Origin: a virus
Taxonomy: Duplodnaviria > Heunggongvirae > Uroviricota > Caudoviricetes
IMG/VR virus record: IMGVR_UViG_2563366944_000002
Location: 1 to 20,260 of that record
Direction: 5' to 3' (one strand)
Length of the DNA: 20,260 nt
Every line of letters begins with the position of its first letter. The stretch's first letter is position 1. The notes below the pieces were generated by a model. It was not told the DNA's origin and searched no databases. It saw only the letters and a list, made by a program, of their open reading frames with translations. Shown in pieces: positions 2,533 to 20,258 of this stretch. A program made the position numbers and the translations under genes.

Positions 2533-3213
2533 TTACCCCTGCCGCCCGATAACCACGACCTTTCCGCCCCCGCCTTCATCACGGGTGCTGATGTCCTGGG
2601 ATATACGGCGGGAGCCAACCAGCATTTCCCCGTAAGGCACCGGCATCGGGTTCCCCTGGGCAATCATGTTATCCAGTGAGGAAAAGTACGTGTTCTGTCT
2701 GCCGTTATCCGTTGCGCGGTAATCCGGTGTTTTTGCCTTCGGGGCCAGCATCTGGGCCACTCCGCCCAGTATCATGCTGGCACCCAGTGAAAACAGCATC
2801 GTGGTGGCAGAAAAACCACCGGCACTCAGGGCTGTACCCCATAACGCCATCGAGCCTCCGGCCGTGAAGAAAGAGCCCACGATGGCTGCCGCCCCCAGCA
2901 CAATCTGCAGTCCACCCTTTCCGGCCCCGGCCAGTCGCGGCACAATGTGGATGACCGTTCCCTCACCCAGCTGTTCGTGAAGACGGGCGTACACCGCCTC
3001 CGGTGCCGTGTCATCACCGGCAATACGTATCTGGTACCAGCCTTCGTTCATCTGACGGCGAAAGCCCGGCATCTGCATCGACAGGGCGCGAATGGCTTCC
3101 GCTGCCGTGTTCACATACAGGCTGAGGCGGCGGCCAAATCGTTGCAAATCCCCGTGAAGGCAGATGCGTGCCAGTGGCGGTGACGCCAGACAGAATGCGT
3201 TCGTCGTTGCCAT
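2533..3213 (-). CDS. I: Tail assembly protein I
   Basis: 226-aa ORF MATTNAFCLASPPLARICLHGDLQRFGRR... collinear with lambda gpI (remembered MAATHTLPLASPGMARICLYGDLQRFGRR...); position between K and J. Confidence 0.9.
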   Translation of the reverse strand: MATTNAFCLASPPLARICLHGDLQRFGRRLSLYVNTAAEAIRALSMQMPGFRRQMNEGWYQIRIAGDDTAPEAVYARLHEQLGEGTVIHIVPRLAGAGKGGLQIVLGAAAIVGSFFTAGGSMALWGTALSAGGFSATTMLFSLGASMILGGVAQMLAPKAKTPDYRATDNGRQNTYFSSLDNMIAQGNPMPVPYGEMLVGSRRISQDISTRDEGGGGKVVVIGRQG

Positions 3214-3854
3214 TTTTCGGAATACCTCTCCCGTTTACTCAGTTGTTCAGGCAGATGGTGAAGCAGCTCACCGTTGCCGCAGTAAATGGCGGCATGGTTC
3301 GGTACCGAAGCACCAAAGCAGCACAGCAGAATATCGCCCGCCTGTGCAGAGGACAGGGGCACCCGGTAAAAGCCGGTGACCGCCATATTGTCCAGGTAAA
3401 GGTTCTGACCGTTGCGCCACCAGTCATCCTCGCGATGAAAATCCGGCATTTCAGTCCCCGCCAGATGGTATGCATCCCGGAACAGGGTGTAACAGTCCGT
3501 CACCCCGTGCTCAAAGCGCCGTCCCGTCAGGTGCGGCACGCAGCGGAATTTGTGAATGTCACCCCGGCAGACCAGCCACCAGGGCAGTGCGCTTTTTATC
3601 TGCAGCCGCCGGTCAGCCTCGCTCAGCCAGGGCAGCCCACCGGGATGACTGTGGACCAGTGCCACAATCTCCCCCTGCATCTCTGCCCGCAGCCAGTCTT
3701 CCGGTGCAATACGAAAATACGCCTCCGGCTCTGCAGAGATATTCACACAAGGGATATACCGCTCCCCCTCCGGCGTTCTCACCACTAAGCCGCACGACTC
3801 CGCAGGCACACACCGCCGGGCATGCGCCAGAATCGCTGATTCTGTCTGTGTCAT
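3111..3854 (-). CDS. K: Tail tip assembly protein K (MPN/JAMM plus NlpC/P60 domains)
   Basis: 247-aa ORF with JAMM motif HSHPGGLPWLSEAD (HxHx7Sx2D) and a Cys/His pair typical of NlpC/P60 (GVTDCYTLF, VPNHAAIY). It overlaps I by 103 bp, as I recall for lambda K/I. The true start could be an internal Met. Confidence 0.9.
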   Translation of the reverse strand: MTQTESAILAHARRCVPAESCGLVVRTPEGERYIPCVNISAEPEAYFRIAPEDWLRAEMQGEIVALVHSHPGGLPWLSEADRRLQIKSALPWWLVCRGDIHKFRCVPHLTGRRFEHGVTDCYTLFRDAYHLAGTEMPDFHREDDWWRNGQNLYLDNMAVTGFYRVPLSSAQAGDILLCCFGASVPNHAAIYCGNGELLHHLPEQLSKRERYSEKWQRRTHSVWRHRHWHASAFTGICNDLAAASACM

Positions 3855-3859
3855 TGGAT

Positions 3860-4558
3860 TTACTGCGAAAGTTTGTTAATGGAAAGGAAACCGCCAAAAT
3901 TAGCCACCATGCCGCGCATCTCACACCCGCGCATGCACTTGCTGCATCTGTCCTTACGGATATCCGTGGTGGGGTTGTCGAACTCATCCGCCACCGCAGG
4001 ACCGTTATACCCGCATTCATCTCCCCGGTAATCCCACATACAGGTGTTCGCCAGCATGATGCGACCGGGAAACAGCGCCCCGTCCGTCTCGGTCGGTGTA
4101 GCCAGCACAAACGAGGCCGTCATGGCTGTCAGCTGCGACATCTGCTCCACCACCCAGCGGTCACTCAGCTCCTGCTCCGGGTCCGCCTCCGGATTGCCCG
4201 CAACGAAATTCACCGCATCCAGAAAACGGGCATACACCCGGCGGCGGACCACCGTGGCCCCCACCAGACTCTGCAGGTCTTCCGCCATCCCGGTGACCAG
4301 ACCGAACAGATTGGACACCGTCAGCGACGGTCTGGCACTGCTGCCCCGGCCGTTCATCTCAAAGCCGCTGCCGTCAATCGGGTATGCCTCATACTTACGC
4401 CCCTGCCAGGTGACCGGCTCCCCTTTTTCATTCAGCTCATTACAGAAAAAATACCGCTCACCACCCTGTACCGTCAGGTCGATTTCCCAGAGTACCACCC
4501 GCGGTGACTGCTCTGACTTAACCGACTCGTTCAGACTTTCTTCGCGAATATCCTGCAT
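3860..4558 (-). CDS. L: Tail tip protein L
   Basis: 232-aa ORF, the same length as lambda gpL, with a cysteine-rich C-terminus (CSKCMRGCEM) consistent with the known Fe-S site; collinear position. Confidence 0.9.
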   Translation of the reverse strand: MQDIREESLNESVKSEQSPRVVLWEIDLTVQGGERYFFCNELNEKGEPVTWQGRKYEAYPIDGSGFEMNGRGSSARPSLTVSNLFGLVTGMAEDLQSLVGATVVRRRVYARFLDAVNFVAGNPEADPEQELSDRWVVEQMSQLTAMTASFVLATPTETDGALFPGRIMLANTCMWDYRGDECGYNGPAVADEFDNPTTDIRKDRCSKCMRGCEMRGMVANFGGFLSINKLSQ

Positions 4559-14616: not shown

Positions 14617-16712
14617 GGATTATCTTCCGCACGCTCCGTCCGCAGTTTTTTCTTCCGGCGACGGCGTTTTTCTGCCCCGGCCGTCAGTTCCGGGGATACC
14701 GTTTCACCAGAACGCTCCTGCGGGAAGACGAGCCACGTTTCCCGCTGTGCCCAGTCCGGTGCGGAGGGCCAGCGGATCTTTTCGTAACCATGCAGAACGG
14801 CAAGCGCATCCGCATAAACCAGCAGGTCAAACGCCTCGTTAGCTCCCCTGCCCGGTTTTCGCCATTTTCCGTCACTGCCGCGCTCTTCATAGGTCAGCTC
14901 ATCGTAAAACCATCGCCCCAGCCAGTCGGGAAAGTGGATATAGTTCGGCCCTGGTGTGTCACGCCACAGGGCATTATTTACACGGTCCTTAAACGCATCC
15001 GTCTGAACCAGCCACAGCGCGACATCGCCACTGGCTCTGGCACGGCGGGCACTTCTGCCGGTATTATCCGGGAAGGTACGGTTAATCAGCCTGTCACGGC
15101 GAAGTCCATCCCCCTTGAACAGAAACACCCTGTTGCCCAGTCCGTCACTCCGGCAACGACGCCAGAAACGATAGGCGTTATCTGTCACCCCGGCTTCCCC
15201 TCCCGTATCCACCGCCATGGCCATCAGACGCATGCGCACATCCGGATCAGAAGCCAGCGGCCATGTTTTATGGAACACATCCGTCAGCAACAAATCCCAG
15301 TCCTCCGGATATGCCGCCGGATCAACCGGCAGACTTTCACCGTTGGGACTGCAGCGCAGTGAATGCCGGATGTTATAGCGATCAACAATCCAGCGTTCCC
15401 CCTGCTCTCCGTATCCGGTGATCTGCACAACAAAACGGCGATTTTTACCGCCCTGTACGTCAACCGTTGCCTCAATAAAACGCACACCATCCGGCACAGA
15501 TCGCCGGGGAAACGGCTCGGCACGCTGTTCAAGCAGTTCACTTTTACGCTGTTCCGTGGCTGAACGGGGCAGATAGGGGCGTCCGATATCGGTGTTCACC
15601 ACCGCTTTCAGGGTCTCTTCACTGCCGGTTCGCTCATACTCTTCTTCTGCCGCCAGCAGTTTAAAAATCAGTTGTTCCCAGGTCTGAAACGCCGCAGCCG
15701 GCCCCTCCATCCAGAATGACGCAATCCGGGAATTTCGTGGCGTTCCGGTGATACTGCCGTCCGCCACCGCCCGTTCACCTTCACGAAGCCAGATCCCTTT
15801 GTTATTCAGTTCGCGTTTCTGCTCAGGGGCAATCAGCCCGCGACAATGCGGACACATCAGACGGGCAGCCTGACCGGCAGCCACAAAATCCGGGTTATTC
15901 CGGTATCCGGTCATGTTATCCATCACCGGCTGAAAATATTCCCCGCAGTGCGGACACGGCCAGTACCACCGGCGGCGGTCTCCCCGGTTATACAGTGACA
16001 GGATCCCCGTTGTTGGCGGTGCCTCATGTGCGCCGCCACAGCGCCATTTGGTGTCAGTGATATCCCGCCCCGGCGAACTCTCGACCAGGGTCATCCCCGA
16101 GGACATAAAGGTGGTGGTACGCTTTGATGCCAGGGTGAAGGCATCCCCTTCCCCGTCCACGTTTTCAGGGAAACGGTCATAATCCGTCAGCGCCACACGA
16201 CGGTAATCCGAAGAAGAAAATACAGTGATCGACGGCCAGCCAATCTTCAGGAAGGAGCCGTCAAGAAACATTTTATCGTGGACGTTGTTGTCATTACGGG
16301 AAGGACTGAGACGCTTACTGACCTCCGGGCTGTGACGAAACGTTCTGGAAAGACGCGTTCTGGAGTGTTCCCGCGCCTTCGTCTCGGTCATTTGCACCAC
16401 CAGCATATCCGCCGGATCACAGATGATGCCGTACACAATCCAGCCGTCAATCAGCCCTTCGGTTTTCCCGGTTCGCGCAGGTCCCACAAACACCACCGCG
16501 TCATATTCACGGGCTGATAATGTATTAATAGGGTCAATCATATAGGGCGTCAGCGATGACTCCCACGGACCGGAAGTATTGGCTCCCCGTGGTACCCGCA
16601 TATAACGCCTGATGGCTTCCGCTACTGGTAACCGGCTGGGCGGGCGAAACAGCGAGGCCACTTCGCGCCAGATATCGGATGCGCGGCTATGGCTCTCGTT
16701 CACCTGATTCAC
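14589..16712 (-). CDS. A: Terminase large subunit (gpA family)
   Basis: 707-aa ORF with a Walker-A-like VFVGPARTGKT and overall gpA-like architecture; start overlaps the small-subunit stop (ATGA). Confidence 0.9.
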   Translation of the reverse strand: MNQVNESHSRASDIWREVASLFRPPSRLPVAEAIRRYMRVPRGANTSGPWESSLTPYMIDPINTLSAREYDAVVFVGPARTGKTEGLIDGWIVYGIICDPADMLVVQMTETKAREHSRTRLSRTFRHSPEVSKRLSPSRNDNNVHDKMFLDGSFLKIGWPSITVFSSSDYRRVALTDYDRFPENVDGEGDAFTLASKRTTTFMSSGMTLVESSPGRDITDTKWRCGGAHEAPPTTGILSLYNRGDRRRWYWPCPHCGEYFQPVMDNMTGYRNNPDFVAAGQAARLMCPHCRGLIAPEQKRELNNKGIWLREGERAVADGSITGTPRNSRIASFWMEGPAAAFQTWEQLIFKLLAAEEEYERTGSEETLKAVVNTDIGRPYLPRSATEQRKSELLEQRAEPFPRRSVPDGVRFIEATVDVQGGKNRRFVVQITGYGEQGERWIVDRYNIRHSLRCSPNGESLPVDPAAYPEDWDLLLTDVFHKTWPLASDPDVRMRLMAMAVDTGGEAGVTDNAYRFWRRCRSDGLGNRVFLFKGDGLRRDRLINRTFPDNTGRSARRARASGDVALWLVQTDAFKDRVNNALWRDTPGPNYIHFPDWLGRWFYDELTYEERGSDGKWRKPGRGANEAFDLLVYADALAVLHGYEKIRWPSAPDWAQRETWLVFPQERSGETVSPELTAGAEKRRRRKKKLRTERAEDNPWITSGGWL

Positions 16713-17185
16713 ATATCGGCCTCATCACAACAGTCAATGACTGCCTTTTCCAGTGTGTCGCGGATCTCATCAACCACAATCTGTACTTCATTCAGTTGTG
16801 ATGCGGTCCACCCTCTGTCCCTTTCCAGCCGGTCAGGCCAGGTTTCCAGTACCTGAACTATCGCTTTCACCACGACAGAAAAGGACCGCCTGACATCACT
16901 GACAGGCACAAGCTGAACAGTTTCATGCTGAAATTTAAGACGCTCGCGCTCGGACTGATACCATGCCTTCCGATCATGTGGGTTCATCTCTTCATCTTCG
17001 GAAGTCGGTGGTTTTTCCAGCAACGAAATAATCAAATCCGTCAGGAGATACAGTTTTTTCTTTTCATTACTGCCTGGTGCAAGAGGAACATCCGCCATTC
17101 TGGCGGCAACAGTCTGCCGGTGCAGACCTGAAAGGGCTGCCAGTTGATTAATATTTAACTTCATATTTTTCAGCTCGCCGTCCAT
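16709..17185 (-). CDS. Nu1: Terminase small subunit (Nu1-like, N-terminal HTH)
   Basis: 158-aa ORF with an N-terminal helix-turn-helix (LNINQLAALSGLHRQTVAARMADVPL) and acidic C-terminus, ~200 bp downstream of the putative cosN as in lambda. Confidence 0.75.
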   Translation of the reverse strand: MDGELKNMKLNINQLAALSGLHRQTVAARMADVPLAPGSNEKKKLYLLTDLIISLLEKPPTSEDEEMNPHDRKAWYQSERERLKFQHETVQLVPVSDVRRSFSVVVKAIVQVLETWPDRLERDRGWTASQLNEVQIVVDEIRDTLEKAVIDCCDEADM

Positions 17186-17430
17186 TTACATCCCTCCACA
17201 TAAACCGCTGAACAAAAGTGGCTCTTTTTTTGTAAAGAAATGCCGCCATATAAAGATGTCGAACAAAAATCAACCGCAATCATCATCTTTTTAATGCTAA
17301 ACACATTAAAAACAATAAGTTACCATTATGATGATGATGACGATAAAATCACAAAAATGCGCCTTTTTCCGCGCCGCCCGCCCCGTGTACAGCCCCACCC
17401 CACCGGGAGGACCCGTCAGCCAGACATAAA
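17186..17430 (-). other. cos region: candidate cosN (~17369-17388) plus an AT-rich cosB-like segment with inverted ATC/GAT triplet repeats
   Basis: The minus strand reads ACGGGGCGGGCGGCGCGGAAAAAGGCGCATTTTTGTG, similar to the lambda cos junction (ACGGGGCGGCGACCTCGCGGGTTTTCGC). AATCATCATC (17278-17287) and GATGATGATGA (17330-17340) form an inverted repeat around AT-rich DNA. Confidence 0.45.
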
Positions 17431-17453
17431 AAAACCGCCATGATGAGGCGGTT
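17426..17453 (-). terminator. Rho-independent terminator ending the lysis-proximal transcript before cos
   Basis: On the minus strand: stem AACCGCC / GGCGGTT with a 7-nt loop, followed by a U7 tract (plus-strand A run 17428-17434); 20 bp downstream of the 70-aa ORF stop. Confidence 0.5.
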
Positions 17454-17473
17454 TAATAATCACAGGTATCAGG

Positions 17474-17686
17474 TTACTGCTCACTCCATACAAAATCATC
17501 GCTTCCCTTTCGATAAGAGCCGTAATGCACTTCATATCCATCGCCAACCATTTTTGCTTTTGTCTCGGCAACCTCTTTTGTTGCATAGACGCCTACAAGA
17601 TGCCATGGCGATCCTTTAACAACAGCCCATCCTTTAACCCAACCTTTGTTGATTGGATCTGGCTCTAATCCTTCCGCAATAAACAT
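17474..17686 (-). CDS. Hypothetical small protein (70 aa), cargo gene between Rz and cos
   Basis: Strong RBS (AGGAG, 6-nt spacer) before the ATG at 17686; AT-rich relative to structural genes; hydrophilic, Trp/Gly-rich. Not recognised. Confidence 0.6.
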   Translation of the reverse strand: MFIAEGLEPDPINKGWVKGWAVVKGSPWHLVGVYATKEVAETKAKMVGDGYEVHYGSYRKGSDDFVWSEQ

Positions 17687-17727
17687 AATTATCTCCTTTT
17701 TGGGTACCCGGAGACATTCTATGTCAT

Positions 17728-17952
17728 TCAGGAAACAGGCAACAATGTCGCTGATACAATCCCCGCCATATTTGCATTCAGATCACATTCAACAGAGATT
17801 TCTTCATCCGTGGCATCCACTTCATATGTTCGTGAATAACATTCCGTGCATTTACCACTGAATGTGCCTTCAGCCAGAACACGCCCACGCTGTAAAACCC
17901 GGAACGGAATTGTTCCGTTAAAGGGCTTTACGGTTACCAGTAATTTCTTCAT
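17728..17952 (-). CDS. Hypothetical small protein (74 aa), cargo gene between Rz and cos
   Basis: RBS GGAGG before the ATG at 17952, 23 bp after the Rz stop. No signal peptide, so not Bor-like. Not recognised. Confidence 0.6.
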   Translation of the reverse strand: MKKLLVTVKPFNGTIPFRVLQRGRVLAEGTFSGKCTECYSRTYEVDATDEEISVECDLNANMAGIVSATLLPVS

Positions 17953-17975
17953 ACATCCTCCGGATAATAAAAAGA

Positions 17976-18440
17976 CTACTTAATGCACTGGGTGCGGATA
18001 TATTCCTGCAATCCCCGAATCATTCTGTCGCTGGTTGCGATTCGCTCTCTGAGGGTGAAATAATCCCGTTGAGCGGCGTCAGTAAGTCCGGGGCGGGCTG
18101 CATCATCCACGCCGGTGGTGCCGGTGGCTTCACGCACGGCTGGACAGACTGCTCTGATGCGCAACCGACGACGACCAGCGGCAATATCATCACGCAGAGC
18201 ATCATTTTCAGCTTTCGCATCAGCTAACTCCCTTGAGTATTTTTCATCGAGTGCAGCAACATCACGCTGGCGCTGCTGCATATCAGTAATGGTTGCATTT
18301 GCCTGCTCCAGCTCACTGACTTTTTTATCGCGCTGCTCTTTGTAGGTTATGGCGTTATCACGGTAATGATTCAGCCCCAGACTAAGCGCACCACAGGCCA
18401 CCAGCAGGGCAATGATGACCACGCACAGTACGCGGTTCAT
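17976..18440 (-). CDS. Rz: Spanin inner-membrane subunit Rz (i-spanin)
   Basis: 154-aa ORF with an N-terminal TM segment then NHYRDNAITYKEQRDKK...AKAENDALRDDIAAGRRRLRI, closely matching lambda Rz as remembered. Confidence 0.92.
   Translation of the reverse strand: MNRVLCVVIIALLVACGALSLGLNHYRDNAITYKEQRDKKVSELEQANATITDMQQRQRDVAALDEKYSRELADAKAENDALRDDIAAGRRRLRIRAVCPAVREATGTTGVDDAARPGLTDAAQRDYFTLRERIATSDRMIRGLQEYIRTQCIK
18020..18220 (-). CDS. Rz1: Spanin outer-membrane lipoprotein Rz1 (o-spanin), embedded in the +1 frame of Rz
   Basis: MRKLKMMLCVMILPLVVVGCAS... with a lipobox (VVGC) and proline-rich CVKPPAPPAWMMQPAPDLLTPLNGIISPSE, the same pattern as lambda Rz1. Confidence 0.85.
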   Translation of the reverse strand: MRKLKMMLCVMILPLVVVGCASEQSVQPCVKPPAPPAWMMQPAPDLLTPLNGIISPSESESQPATE

Positions 18441-18441
18441 T

Positions 18442-18579
18442 TCACCACCAGCGTATCTGACCGATGAAATAACCGGAGGCCATAATCACAAACACCAGCC
18501 AGATAAGAATGAACTTCCAGGTGGATAATTTTTCAGCCATCACTCGAATCTCCCGAATCAGTTTGCTAAAATCAAACAC
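18442..18579 (-). CDS. Candidate 45-codon single-pass membrane protein between endolysin and Rz (GTG start; alternative ATG at 18540 gives 32 aa)
   Basis: Not in the track (below 60 aa). AAGGAG sits upstream of a GTG at 18579 with a short spacer. Hand translation: MFDFSKLIREIRVMAEKLSTWKFILIWLVFVIMASGYFIGQIRWW; the stop is 1 nt from the Rz start. One hydrophobic helix. Prediction only. Confidence 0.3.
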   Translation of the reverse strand: MFDFSKLIREIRVMAEKLSTWKFILIWLVFVIMASGYFIGQIRWW

Positions 18580-18615
18580 ACTTTCTCCTTTGACTTTTCC
18601 AGAGTCAGGAAACAC

Positions 18616-18649
18616 AAAACCCCGCTTGCAGCCAACAAACGGGGTTTTT
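18616..18649. terminator. Hairpin with T/A tracts on both sides (bidirectional terminator-like) in the endolysin-Rz gap
   Basis: CCCCGCTTG / CAAACGGGG stem (one mismatch) with a 7-nt loop, followed by TTTTT on the plus strand and preceded by AAAA (a U tract on the minus strand). Confidence 0.4.
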
Positions 18650-18738: not shown

Positions 18739-19272
18739 TTATTTGTCAATTCCCCAGCACGCCAGCGCGCTCTCCTGGTCACGCCGTGAGACCTGTCCAT
18801 AGCAGTTATTTGAACGAATACGGCAGTCTCTGCCACCGTCCTTAATCCACCAGCGAATCGCCTCACATGCTCCCCTGCGATCGCCTGCATTAATTCGTTT
18901 ATAAAACGTCGACGGGAAACACTTACCGGGGCCAATGTTATACGGGCAGAATGACGCAATACCCGCTTTCTGTGGTTCAGTCAGTGGCACTTTGATGTTT
19001 TTCGCCACCCATGCCAGCGCCTTATCACGCTCAATGGCGTTAACCTGGTCGCATTTTTCCTTCGACAACTTCATGCCGGGGAGGACAGGCTTACCATCCA
19101 CCCGGGTGGCTCCACGGCAGATGGTCCAGATACCCGCGCCATCACGGTATGCCGTGGTGTGGTTACCTTCCTTTTCATCCAGAAACTGGTCGAGAATGTC
19201 AGGCGCAGGCGCACCAGCGGCAATCAGCGCCAGAACGGCAGCCGACAGGCCGTATTTGATTTTTGCGTTCAT
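18739..19272 (-). CDS. R: Endolysin, lysozyme-like with N-terminal signal-anchor-release (SAR) domain
   Basis: 177-aa ORF with an N-terminal weakly hydrophobic Gly/Ala-rich segment (GLSAAVLALIAAGAPA) followed by a catalytic E-x8-D-x5-T pattern (EKEGNHTTAYRDGAGIWT), as in P21-type SAR endolysins. Weak RBS. Confidence 0.9.
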   Translation of the reverse strand: MNAKIKYGLSAAVLALIAAGAPAPDILDQFLDEKEGNHTTAYRDGAGIWTICRGATRVDGKPVLPGMKLSKEKCDQVNAIERDKALAWVAKNIKVPLTEPQKAGIASFCPYNIGPGKCFPSTFYKRINAGDRRGACEAIRWWIKDGGRDCRIRSNNCYGQVSRRDQESALACWGIDK

Positions 19273-19400: not shown

Positions 19401-19715
19401 ATGCATAACGATCAACATAATTATGATTTATGCCTGCAAGCCATAAATGAGCGGGTAAAATCAGAGTGCCTCTTACTCCTCCCACAAGAACACGATGCAG
19501 TAAAATCCATTCAGGCTGAGCCGTATGGACATCTCACACCTGTGACTCTCGGCATTATCGCCAGAGCATTAACACAGCCCATGCTTATGCGTATTAAGAC
19601 CAATATAAATAACTGGTTGAATGAAGAATTAAGCTACCTTGATTGTGAGTGGGACAATCATTACGCAAAAACACAAAAAGAACGCATCTTCAGTCGATTA
19701 TCCAGCAACAGATAA
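19401..19715 (+). CDS. Hypothetical protein (104 aa) on the opposite strand to the late operon, AT-rich cargo gene
   Basis: GAGG RBS 8 nt before the ATG at 19401; region is clearly more AT-rich than the structural genes; convergent with the 177-aa ORF (9 bp between stops). No recognisable motif. Confidence 0.55.
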   Translation: MHNDQHNYDLCLQAINERVKSECLLLLPQEHDAVKSIQAEPYGHLTPVTLGIIARALTQPMLMRIKTNINNWLNEELSYLDCEWDNHYAKTQKERIFSRLSSNR

Positions 19716-19724
19716 CGAGCCACC

Positions 19725-20258
19725 TTATATACGCCCTTTCAGATAAGTCATCCCCGGCTGCATCCAGTCAACAGGTGCTTTCTTAAAGGGCGTATTATCA
19801 AAATCACGCAGAAGAGCCTCCAGCACAACTGCATCATTGTCAGCACCACTGGCCATCATTTCAATCTCAGCTGCTACCTGCAGATATCCCATGCAACGAC
19901 CAATGCGCTTCATCAGCCCCTGCTTTTTATTGTTCTTCAGGTAATCAATGGCAAATTCAATGAGCGCCTCACTATGCTGGTGCGATGGCGGTGTTAATTT
20001 CCCATTTTCTGAGATGGTTATTTTCCCGCCATCTCCGTATACAACAAAGGATGGCCGGTTACACTCCCATTCCTGATCTTTATCAGGTGCAGACGCAATA
20101 AAATAACGTTTATTTCCTTCCTCTCCGGCACTTTTAACCGTAATGGAGTACTCAGACTGCAGACAAGACGCCTCTTTTTCTGACCGCAGTGTTGACGGCG
20201 GCATCTTCAGAGAACCAGTAATTCTTCCCGGTAGCTTTCCTTTGTAGGTTATCAACAC
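19725..20258 (-). CDS. Hypothetical protein (at least 177 aa; the start lies within 3 nt of the window edge, so it may be N-terminally truncated)
   Basis: Long ORF in AT-rich DNA upstream of the endolysin on the late-operon strand; hydrophilic, no TM segments, so not a holin. Not recognised. Confidence 0.5.
   Translation of the reverse strand: MLITYKGKLPGRITGSLKMPPSTLRSEKEASCLQSEYSITVKSAGEEGNKRYFIASAPDKDQEWECNRPSFVVYGDGGKITISENGKLTPPSHQHSEALIEFAIDYLKNNKKQGLMKRIGRCMGYLQVAAEIEMMASGADNDAVVLEALLRDFDNTPFKKAPVDWMQPGMTYLKGRI

Follow-up and report, generated by a model that had tools for sequence, protein, structure and literature searches.

We analysed a 20,260-nucleotide (nt) stretch of DNA (IMG/VR virus record IMGVR_UViG_2563366944_000002, positions 1 to 20,260; hereafter the window), which represents a lambdoid Escherichia coli prophage with its late genes on the minus strand. 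Two small open reading frames (ORFs), here named ORF74 and ORF70, were found to form a single linked cassette together with the structured spacer between them and the intrinsic terminator behind them, rather than two independent cargo genes. This cassette is mobile between accessory slots of lambdoid prophages, and the product of its second gene belongs to a small domain family, here named X, whose other members include C-terminal parts of toxin-type proteins. We put forward, with about even confidence for and against, that the cassette is a mobile conflict-related accessory element in which ORF70 is a free X domain acting by binding, and that the synthesis of ORF70 is gated by a hairpin and tied to that of ORF74.

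A preliminary description of the window, made from its letters alone, had placed two ORFs of 74 and 70 amino acids (aa) between Rz/Rz1 and cos. Both were confirmed at their coordinates on the minus strand, whereas the implied picture of two separate cargo ORFs gave way to that of one cassette with a conserved structured spacer. The cassette and the junction preceding it consist of the following features:

17953–17975, minus strand: Rz–ORF74 junction, a 23-nt gap holding GGAGG (examined by promoter and terminator scan)
17728–17952, minus strand: ORF74, 74 aa, ATG start; PHROG family phrog_2571
17682–17725, minus strand: structured spacer (predicted hairpin, motif conservation)
17474–17686, minus strand: ORF70, 70 aa, the X domain, ATG start; PHROG family phrog_4280
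17422–17454, minus strand: intrinsic terminator region, with a stem at 17454–17432 and a T-run, 19 nt past the ORF70 stop codon

Positions 17300–18100 of the window are 100% identical to DNA of E. coli strains AR_0013, CEA601S and MSB1_4I. The RefSeq annotation of the identical prophage in AR_0013 agrees with this layout and names both ORF74 and ORF70 "hypothetical protein".

Both ORFs encode real proteins. ORF74 matches phrog_2571 (E = 5.3e-28; profile positions 100–172 of 291) and ORF70 matches phrog_4280 (E = 9.1e-38; positions 1–69 of 71), two PHROG families listed as of unknown function. For each ORF dozens of homologues were found, with conserved lengths and without exception named "hypothetical". 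The preliminary description had proposed reading-frame conservation in relatives and structure prediction as ways of checking these genes; frames and lengths turned out to be kept across genera, and AlphaFold2 (AF2) models built from homologue alignments of each ORF were confident for both. ORF70 (pLDDT 92.7) adopts an alpha/beta fold with a beta-beta-alpha-beta core and ORF74 (pLDDT 87.4) a six-stranded all-beta fold (beta-sandwich). Median pairwise dN/dS was 0.11 for ORF70 (202 pairs) and 0.25 for ORF74 (158 pairs), and ORF74 evolves faster than ORF70 (median pairwise identity 0.40 versus 0.69).

The two products are acidic (isoelectric points of 5.25 and 5.55) and are predicted to be cytoplasmic. 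The maximal Kyte-Doolittle means over 19 residues are 1.02 and 0.56, the N-termini are not hydrophobic, and neither a transmembrane (TM) segment nor a signal peptide was found, which together with their location on the late-gene strand bears out the earlier remark that they are not Bor-like. ORF74 was also considered as a secreted or lipoprotein analogue of Bor, which the missing signal sequence ruled out. The preliminary description had assigned no function to either ORF; we likewise found no match for ORF74 or ORF70 in Pfam, NCBIfam or PADLOC v2. Sequence profile searches of the PDB gave only chance-level matches (DamX SPOR at E = 0.87), Foldseek comparison of ORF70 with BFVD returned nothing at an E-value of 0.001 or better, and no publication on either protein turned up when the literature was searched by accession, family name and topic.

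Linkage of the two genes was analysed in 121 loci, comprising GTDB species representatives, IMG/VR contigs and annotated phage and E. coli records. Of 122 ORF70-family hits, 91 are immediately preceded on the same strand by an ORF74-like gene, and these include nearly all Enterobacterales-type copies. The hits without such a gene are non-enteric relatives, two copies at contig edges (loci L105 and L119), and loci L106, L120 and L013; L013 retains a 5'-truncated remnant of ORF74, and L106 has ORF70 without ORF74. The gene order is always ORF74 followed by ORF70, with a spacer of 41–75 nt, in at least six genera and at least three prophage slots. In phage mEp237 the pair likewise follows Rz: gp61 shares 71% identity with ORF70, and gp60 (81 aa) is a distant homologue of ORF74 (BLASTP E = 8e-9; hhalign probability 95.7%).

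The dependence is one-sided, in that ORF70 needs an ORF74-like neighbour and not the reverse. ORF74-type DNA is present in 1,244 of 5,426 complete E. coli genomes (~23%) and ORF70-type DNA in 120, and in Stx2 phages, which lack ORF70, the homologue of ORF74 overlaps the Rz stop codon by 4 nt. Divergence of ORF74 and that of ORF70 are correlated (Spearman 0.53). In the window, ORF70 is ~70% identical to its relatives and ORF74 only 27–46% identical to theirs, and the ORF74 combined here with ORF70 is of a type that usually stands alone after Rz. The exact combination of ORF74 and ORF70 seen here was found only three times among complete E. coli genomes.

Two longer relatives of ORF74 were also observed. 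Unlike ORF74, the phrog_2571 profile spans 291 positions, of which ORF74 corresponds to 100–172 only, and these lie in the middle of a 286-aa protein of phage PhiR46_1 (L005, 2701–3561). This protein is encoded in the post-Rz region, has no Pfam match and fits the 291-position profile; its ORF74-like domain (44% identity) occupies residues ~101–169, the N-terminal part resembles a coiled coil on visual inspection, and the 115 aa at the C-terminus are uncharacterised. In the second relative, P0062 (125 aa) from E. coli, read-through joins a DUF1737 domain to an ORF74-type protein, which implies that ORF74 is directly preceded by a DUF1737 gene in some prophages.

The cassette occupies several slots. 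The preliminary description had treated the two ORFs as occupants of the Rz–cos slot, where they are found in the window; copies of the cassette were also detected in a Q/tRNA–holin slot, a pre-holin slot and an early-region slot. Prophages of Shiga toxin-producing E. coli (STEC) of types O145, O111, O103 and O157 carry it after a tRNA-Ile/Arg/Arg cluster downstream of Q, with TerB, DUF3927 and nanS-p genes and then the holin gene on its 3' side; this is the slot where Stx phages carry stx. It follows Rz in E. coli O68:H12 and mEp237, precedes the holin gene in Xenorhabdus, and lies beside cI/cro-like genes in Scandinavium. A census of the flanks of ~90 cassettes gave the following distribution:

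23 loci: tRNA genes upstream, TerB downstream
about 25 loci: lysis genes upstream; small terminase (TerS), gp62 or KilA-N downstream
4 loci: holin downstream
18 loci: unclassified

In most related lambdoid phages the cassette is absent. Presence or absence between genes that are adjacent in related phages, combined with varied contexts, is a hallmark of phage morons, and deviating base composition is another. The GC content is 0.437 for ORF70 and 0.444 for ORF74, compared with 0.538 for Rz, 0.573 for the large terminase (TerL) and 0.550 for the whole window, and the cassette as a whole has 0.43 against its flanking genes. The earlier characterization of the two ORFs as accessory, AT-rich and co-directional with the lysis genes is thus accurate.

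A terminator of its own is a further moron feature of the cassette. In the window, the stem (17454–17432, minus strand) was located by a consensus scan, right after the ORFs as originally noted; it has 8 bp including 5 GC pairs, is followed by TTTTTATGT and has an energy of -12 kcal/mol. Of 14 cassette copies examined, 13 are followed by a GC hairpin with a T-run, whatever the genomic context, and the sequence of this hairpin varies among copies. Two STEC O145-type loci (L038 and L039, region 2713–3984) have terminator-like hairpins on both sides of the cassette. Late transcription in lambda-type phages starts at pR' and, antiterminated by Q, continues across the lysis genes and cos to the head genes. 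The cassette terminator is therefore not the end of late transcription, because the Q-antiterminated transcript must cross cos to reach the head genes, and it can act only on polymerase that is not antiterminated. At the 5' end, promoter and terminator scanning of the Rz–ORF74 junction revealed neither a terminator nor a consensus promoter, so that ORF74 is read together with the lysis genes. The suggestion of a discrete transcription unit ending before cos needs qualification: the terminator does travel with the cassette, but it ends only non-antiterminated transcription, and no consensus promoter was found.

A conserved nucleotide element of the cassette lies at the junction of the two genes. 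The 30–35 nt before the ORF70 start codon are conserved far better than the ORF74 protein and contain a near-invariant motif, tATCTCCgggtacccaaaGGAGATa-N3-4-ATG, which is common to Escherichia, Pseudocitrobacter, Xenorhabdus, Providencia and others. A covariance model of the spacer (R1) gave exactly one match per enteric locus, always at the ORF74–ORF70 junction, and no match in Pseudomonas loci or ORF74-only loci. Rfam had no match at gathering score across the window; its best sub-threshold match over the spacer reached 16.4 bits against a cut-off of 49.9.

This region is predicted to fold into a hairpin, whose 5' arm (CAUAG..UGUCUCC) would pair with the Shine-Dalgarno (SD) sequence of ORF70 (GGAGAUA) and with its AUG. 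The minimum-free-energy (MFE) fold of the window spacer starts 2 nt past the ORF74 stop codon and has -13 kcal/mol, with both SD and AUG paired. Among 35 unique spacers, the SD is paired in the MFE fold of all 35, with all four SD nucleotides paired in 25, and in 21 every nucleotide of the AUG is paired; relative to shuffled 5' arms, the z-score averages -2.3. Pairing is kept with sequences that differ by lineage (CCUCC/GGAGG; UAUGCCUCU/GGAGGCAUA; UUUUCC/GGAAA; and CUAUCU/AGAUAG together with AACAUGC/GCAUGUU). In a fixed-register structure, 69.9% of cells are paired and five pairs are changed on both sides, compared with 2.3 in shuffles; none of 500 shuffles reached five. We regard this covariation at fixed register as moderate. 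The apical loop falls into two classes, GGGUACCC and GGUUAACC, both of which are 8-nt palindromes. The window has GGGUACCC at 17704–17711 (minus strand), with equivalent positions in L009, L011, L095 and others. A palindromic loop hints at loop–loop pairing or recognition by a dimeric factor.

Based on these predicted folds, a hairpin that sequesters the ribosome-binding site (RBS) of ORF70 is somewhat more probable than a spacer without one, and it might couple the translation of ORF70 to that of ORF74. Both ORFs had been described as having strong RBSs. Good SD sequences are indeed present, GGAGG four nucleotides 5' of the ATG for ORF74 and GGAG seven nucleotides 5' of the ATG for ORF70, but the RBS of ORF70 is predicted to be sequestered in the hairpin.

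The X-domain family is small (315 representatives at 50% identity in 1.84 billion proteins) and extends to Pseudomonas phages, where it is cargo among tail genes, and to beta- and alphaproteobacteria. Most members are stand-alone proteins of 65–90 aa, and 27 of the best 150 representatives have at least 150 aa. Only G19, V22, G56 and F65 are invariant across the wide family, and no polar residue is conserved, which makes a catalytic role very unlikely; the possibility that X is an enzyme was dropped on this ground. A resemblance to DUF2188 had no Pfam support and was also dropped. A Pfam scan of 31 diverse X domains (E up to 10) gave only sub-threshold matches, which we do not count as family membership: DUF7336 matched five members, with at most 19 bits where the cut-off is 25, and SPOR matched two.

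In the long members, the X domain is usually located C-terminal to an effector-type domain. Fusions among the 34 long members scanned involve Trypsin_2 (eight), TIR_2 (two), Mrr_cat (one) and Imm53 (one). A protein from a Methylobacter metagenome-assembled genome (MAG) combines X with a RES domain (32.5 bits against a Pfam cut-off of 23.2), and one 639-aa protein has X at its N-terminus together with a Fic domain. PADLOC profiles match only the effector parts (TIR or protease) of such proteins and never the X domain.

We inspected six gene neighbourhoods of X-bearing proteins (TIR-X, Trypsin-X, Mrr-X, P0190, RES-X and X-Fic), four of which contain defence or abortive-infection genes. TIR-X adjoins an Mrr_cat gene and an AAA_13 ATPase gene. 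The Trypsin-X gene starts 14 nt past hsdS of a type I restriction-modification system, with more methyltransferases downstream, and a ThsB_TIR gene lies ~4.6 kb from Mrr-X. P0190, an X-bearing protein of 282 aa without a Pfam match, has an Abi_alpha gene ~2.2 kb away on a contig that also holds a terminase and a resolvase. An RHS-repeat gene is near X-Fic. The gene of RES-X (L021, 3041–4183; 380 aa, X at the C-terminus) is located between tsaD and plsY with a 27-nt gap upstream, which leaves no room for a separate (usual Xre) antitoxin gene and makes RES-X a candidate single-chain toxin-regulator. No ORF74-like genes were found next to effector-X proteins (L121–L125), and no second copy of X was found in the neighbourhoods L121–L125, L021, L023 and L032.

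One small domain that stays constant while the toxin-type domains joined to it are exchanged is what a sensor, a regulator (cis-antitoxin) or an adaptor module would be expected to show. The preliminary description had suggested a regulatory, anti-defence or host-interaction role; among these the fusions of X would favour defence or anti-defence.

Stand-alone X genes showed two further arrangements. In Stellaceae MAGs, tandemly duplicated X genes (L027, 3686–3901 and 3998–4201; L028, 3980–4195 and 4384–4599) lie directly upstream of a gene similar to pyridoxal phosphate (PLP)-dependent enzymes, in a chromosomal setting with no phage features. In Pseudomonas phages and prophages (L004, 3986–4466; L017, L018 and L024), the X gene adjoins a convergent conserved gene of ~83–88 aa, and the pair is located among tail genes in the phage loci L004, L018 and L024.

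Considering these data together, we infer a conflict role, a binding mechanism and translational gating for the cassette. ORF74, the structured spacer, ORF70 and the terminator move as a unit between non-essential slots of lambdoid prophages, and their most likely role is in phage–host or phage–phage conflict. Free ORF70 would act by binding rather than catalysis, its partner being either the ligand or partner that X recognises in the fused proteins or ORF74 itself, and it would thereby be a decoy, a shield or a regulator. Its SD and AUG would be enclosed in the hairpin until opened by ribosomes finishing ORF74 or by a factor acting in trans, and this opening would tie the output of ORF70 to the translation of ORF74. 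The one-sided dependence and the faster evolution of ORF74 are compatible with two versions: ORF70 may shield or regulate ORF74, or it may compete for the ligand of X-type sensors. In a more specific form, which we advance tentatively and consider rather unlikely as a whole, ORF70 would be the free form of a hitherto unrecognised sensor or regulatory domain that defines a class of single-chain toxin–sensor immunity proteins (Trypsin-X, TIR-X, RES-X, Mrr-X and X-Fic), and the prophage X would be a shield or decoy made in step with ORF74 by means of the RBS-gating hairpin. ORF70 would then mask the fast-evolving ORF74 from X-type sensors or compete for the X ligand.

Several observations weigh against the proposed conflict cassette or its hairpin. 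No named family, structural neighbour or experiment gives a function for ORF74 or ORF70. No effector-X fusion was seen in Enterobacterales, and the host target for an X decoy is therefore undocumented. Stand-alone X genes also occur in ordinary chromosomal contexts (alphaproteobacterial MAGs; by groEL or a PLP-dependent enzyme), and no conserved partner gene accompanies stand-alone X outside Enterobacterales. A crude scan of the coding strand upstream of ORF74 in the window, L003, L038 and L040 revealed no sigma-70 consensus. RNAalifold predicted no consensus structure on a MAFFT alignment of the spacers, because lineages use different stem registers, and covariance-model realignment did not settle this register problem. 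One slid control scores higher on covariation than the fixed-register structure, and the ORF70 start region is no outlier for predicted structure among the genes of the window. Spacers of 59–75 nt place the hairpin 20–40 nt past the ORF74 stop codon, too far for simple opening by ribosomes. In addition, the acidic ORF74 and ORF70 proteins are not obvious RNA binders for the hairpin.

The cassette resembles several known systems in part. Lambdoid morons (lambda bor and lom, and stx in the Q–S slot) are likewise non-essential insertions of lower GC content with a 3' terminator, present or absent between adjacent genes, and they use the same two slots, Rz–cos and Q/tRNA–holin. Unlike them, the cassette has no detectable promoter of its own and consists of two linked genes with a structured spacer. 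Lambda bor, moreover, is on the opposite strand, whereas the cassette is co-directional with the late genes and lacks a lipoprotein or secretion signal.

The spacer is comparable to the coat/replicase operator of phage MS2, an RBS-sequestering hairpin for translational coupling and repression. In both, the downstream SD and AUG are in a stem-loop (a predicted one here) next to the upstream stop codon, and the conserved sequence of the apical loop suggests a trans-acting partner. Unlike the MS2 operator, the spacer has no known binding protein, its distance from the ORF74 stop codon varies (41–75 nt spacers), and the statistics support its fold moderately.

For the effector-X relatives, which are outside the window, the closest analogy may be CapRel, reportedly a fused toxin–antitoxin/sensor defence protein described by Zhang et al. 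in Nature in 2022. Like it, the relatives have a toxin-type N-terminal domain and a small non-enzymatic C-terminal domain, with defence genes near several loci; RES-X, Trypsin-X and TIR-X share the single-chain layout of a toxin with a small C-terminal domain, and RES-X has no separate antitoxin gene. Effector-associated domains (EADs) of NTP-dependent conflict systems are small domains at the N- or C-terminus of TIR, trypsin-like peptidase and restriction endonuclease (REase) effectors, some of them alpha+beta (PMC7159879). X is similar to EADs as a small non-enzymatic domain on diverse effectors (Trypsin_2, TIR_2, Mrr_cat, RES and Fic). In contrast to EADs, most X-family members stand alone, and the six neighbourhoods inspected showed no second copy of X on a core NTPase, VMAP or STAND component, the feature by which EADs are defined.

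Type II toxin–antitoxin (TA) operons also consist of two small co-directional genes in conserved order, are mobile and are translated unequally, as is predicted for the cassette. A TA-like or abortive-infection pair is accordingly the first alternative to be weighed: one protein would be growth-inhibitory and the other would neutralise it, with the hairpin setting their ratio, for addiction or for abortion of superinfection. The adjacency of the genes, their short spacer, the apparently restricted translation of the second gene and the mobility of the cassette agree with such a pair. X is also fused elsewhere to classical TA toxin domains (RES and Fic) and may act as a cis antitoxin in RES-X, where a separate antitoxin gene is missing. 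However, co-occurrence is not obligate. An ORF74-type gene stands by itself in ~23% of the complete genomes of E. coli, and solitary X genes are found in many non-enteric taxa, including Pseudomonas phages and alphaproteobacteria; since each occurs alone so widely, neither looks obligatorily toxic. Both proteins lack a match to any known toxin, antitoxin or DNA-binding fold; there is no DNA-binding antitoxin, and no autoregulated promoter was found. Moreover, partners have been swapped, and an ORF70 of ~70% identity next to an ORF74 of 27–46% identity is hard to square with a strictly cognate neutralising interface. We consider a TA-like pair unlikely.

A second alternative is that the two proteins are late-lytic helpers, which would tune spanin or endolysin action, lysis timing, or the function of cos and terminase. 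The cassette is part of the late operon and no terminator separates ORF74 from Rz, as such helpers would show, and about 25 of the ~90 cassettes have lysis genes on one side and terminase or other pre-cos genes on the other. The overlap of the Stx2 ORF74 homologue with the Rz stop codon also suggests translational coupling to Rz. On the other hand, in at least 23 loci the cassette is far from both Rz and cos, between tRNA genes and TerB, and it is also found upstream of the Xenorhabdus holin and by cI/cro-like genes in Scandinavium. Homologues of X are cargo in the tail region of Pseudomonas phages and domains of defence-island proteins, and neither cassette protein has a membrane or periplasmic targeting signal. 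Its absence from most related lambdoid phages indicates that the cassette is not a core lysis or packaging function. We therefore judge the late-lytic explanation improbable.

That two unrelated, separately acquired cargo genes are neighbours by chance appears very improbable. ORF74-type genes occur mostly without ORF70, X genes occur without ORF74 outside Enterobacterales, and the ORF74 of the window comes from a clade that is usually alone after Rz, all of which would fit separate acquisition. Against chance stand the ORF74-like gene 41–75 nt upstream of nearly every Enterobacterales-type ORF70 in at least six genera, the spacer motif conserved at this junction only, and the correlated divergence of the two proteins. 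Finally, the idea that the ORFs are not genes and only a DNA or RNA feature such as cos-accessory sites is conserved, which their short length, their uniformly "hypothetical" database names and the conserved nucleotide motif in the spacer might suggest, is effectively refuted by the frames and lengths kept across genera, the low median dN/dS of both ORFs, the confident AF2 folds and the in-frame occurrence of X inside multi-domain proteins.

Phage morons are a well-known kind of element. The linkage of the two genes, the conserved spacer element and an X domain common to toxin-type proteins appear to be new. X recurs as the non-enzymatic partner of toxin-type domains of five unrelated kinds, and several of these are located next to defence genes. 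If X is a sensor or cis-antitoxin, the fused proteins would be new single-gene defence proteins with a matching free domain borne by phages. If free X is a shield or decoy, the cassette would represent a new axis of defence and counter-defence with a built-in device for translational coupling. About one in four complete E. coli genomes has ORF74-type genes, and the cassette occupies the stx slot of many STEC prophages.

The cassette of the window is surrounded by the following genes and regions:

18739–19272, minus strand: lysozyme gene (from the ORF listing and gene order)
18442–18615, minus strand: 57-aa ORF with a TM segment, between lysozyme and Rz
17976–18440, minus strand: Rz spanin gene (from the ORF listing), named "lysis protein" in RefSeq
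18020–18220, minus strand: Rz1 lipoprotein gene with a lipobox, embedded in Rz (from the ORF listing)
17186–17421, no strand: non-coding, GC-rich, cos-like stretch (from the sequence), upstream of the small terminase gene
16709–17185, minus strand: DUF1441-type small terminase gene, followed by the large terminase gene

Positions 17300–17415 of the cos-like stretch share 94% identity with DNA that carries no annotation in VT1-Sakai and other Stx phages. From this identity and from its resemblance to lambda cosN, the stretch is a putative cos.

Further small ORFs were noted in the lysis region. The 57-aa ORF encodes a basic protein (isoelectric point 9.7) with a hydrophobic segment (Kyte-Doolittle 19-residue mean of 2.13), and a 14-bp terminator-like hairpin lies just upstream of it (18616–18648, minus strand). 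It is absent from the RefSeq annotation; Stx2 phage EH2201 has a 219-bp hypothetical gene in the same position.

A YdfR-like ORF (19725–20258, minus strand) is located between the holin and lysozyme genes and runs past the end of the window. In the source genome it is a 268-aa ORF (L001, 8426–9232), whose first part is a YdfR-family protein in RefSeq, flagged as an incomplete pseudogene. The YdfR part runs in frame into ~160 aa without a match in Pfam, NCBIfam or PADLOC. Between the lysozyme gene and this ORF, an AT-rich ORF of 104 aa (19401–19715, plus strand), which is "hypothetical" in RefSeq and has no family match, is possibly another piece of cargo inserted among the lysis genes.

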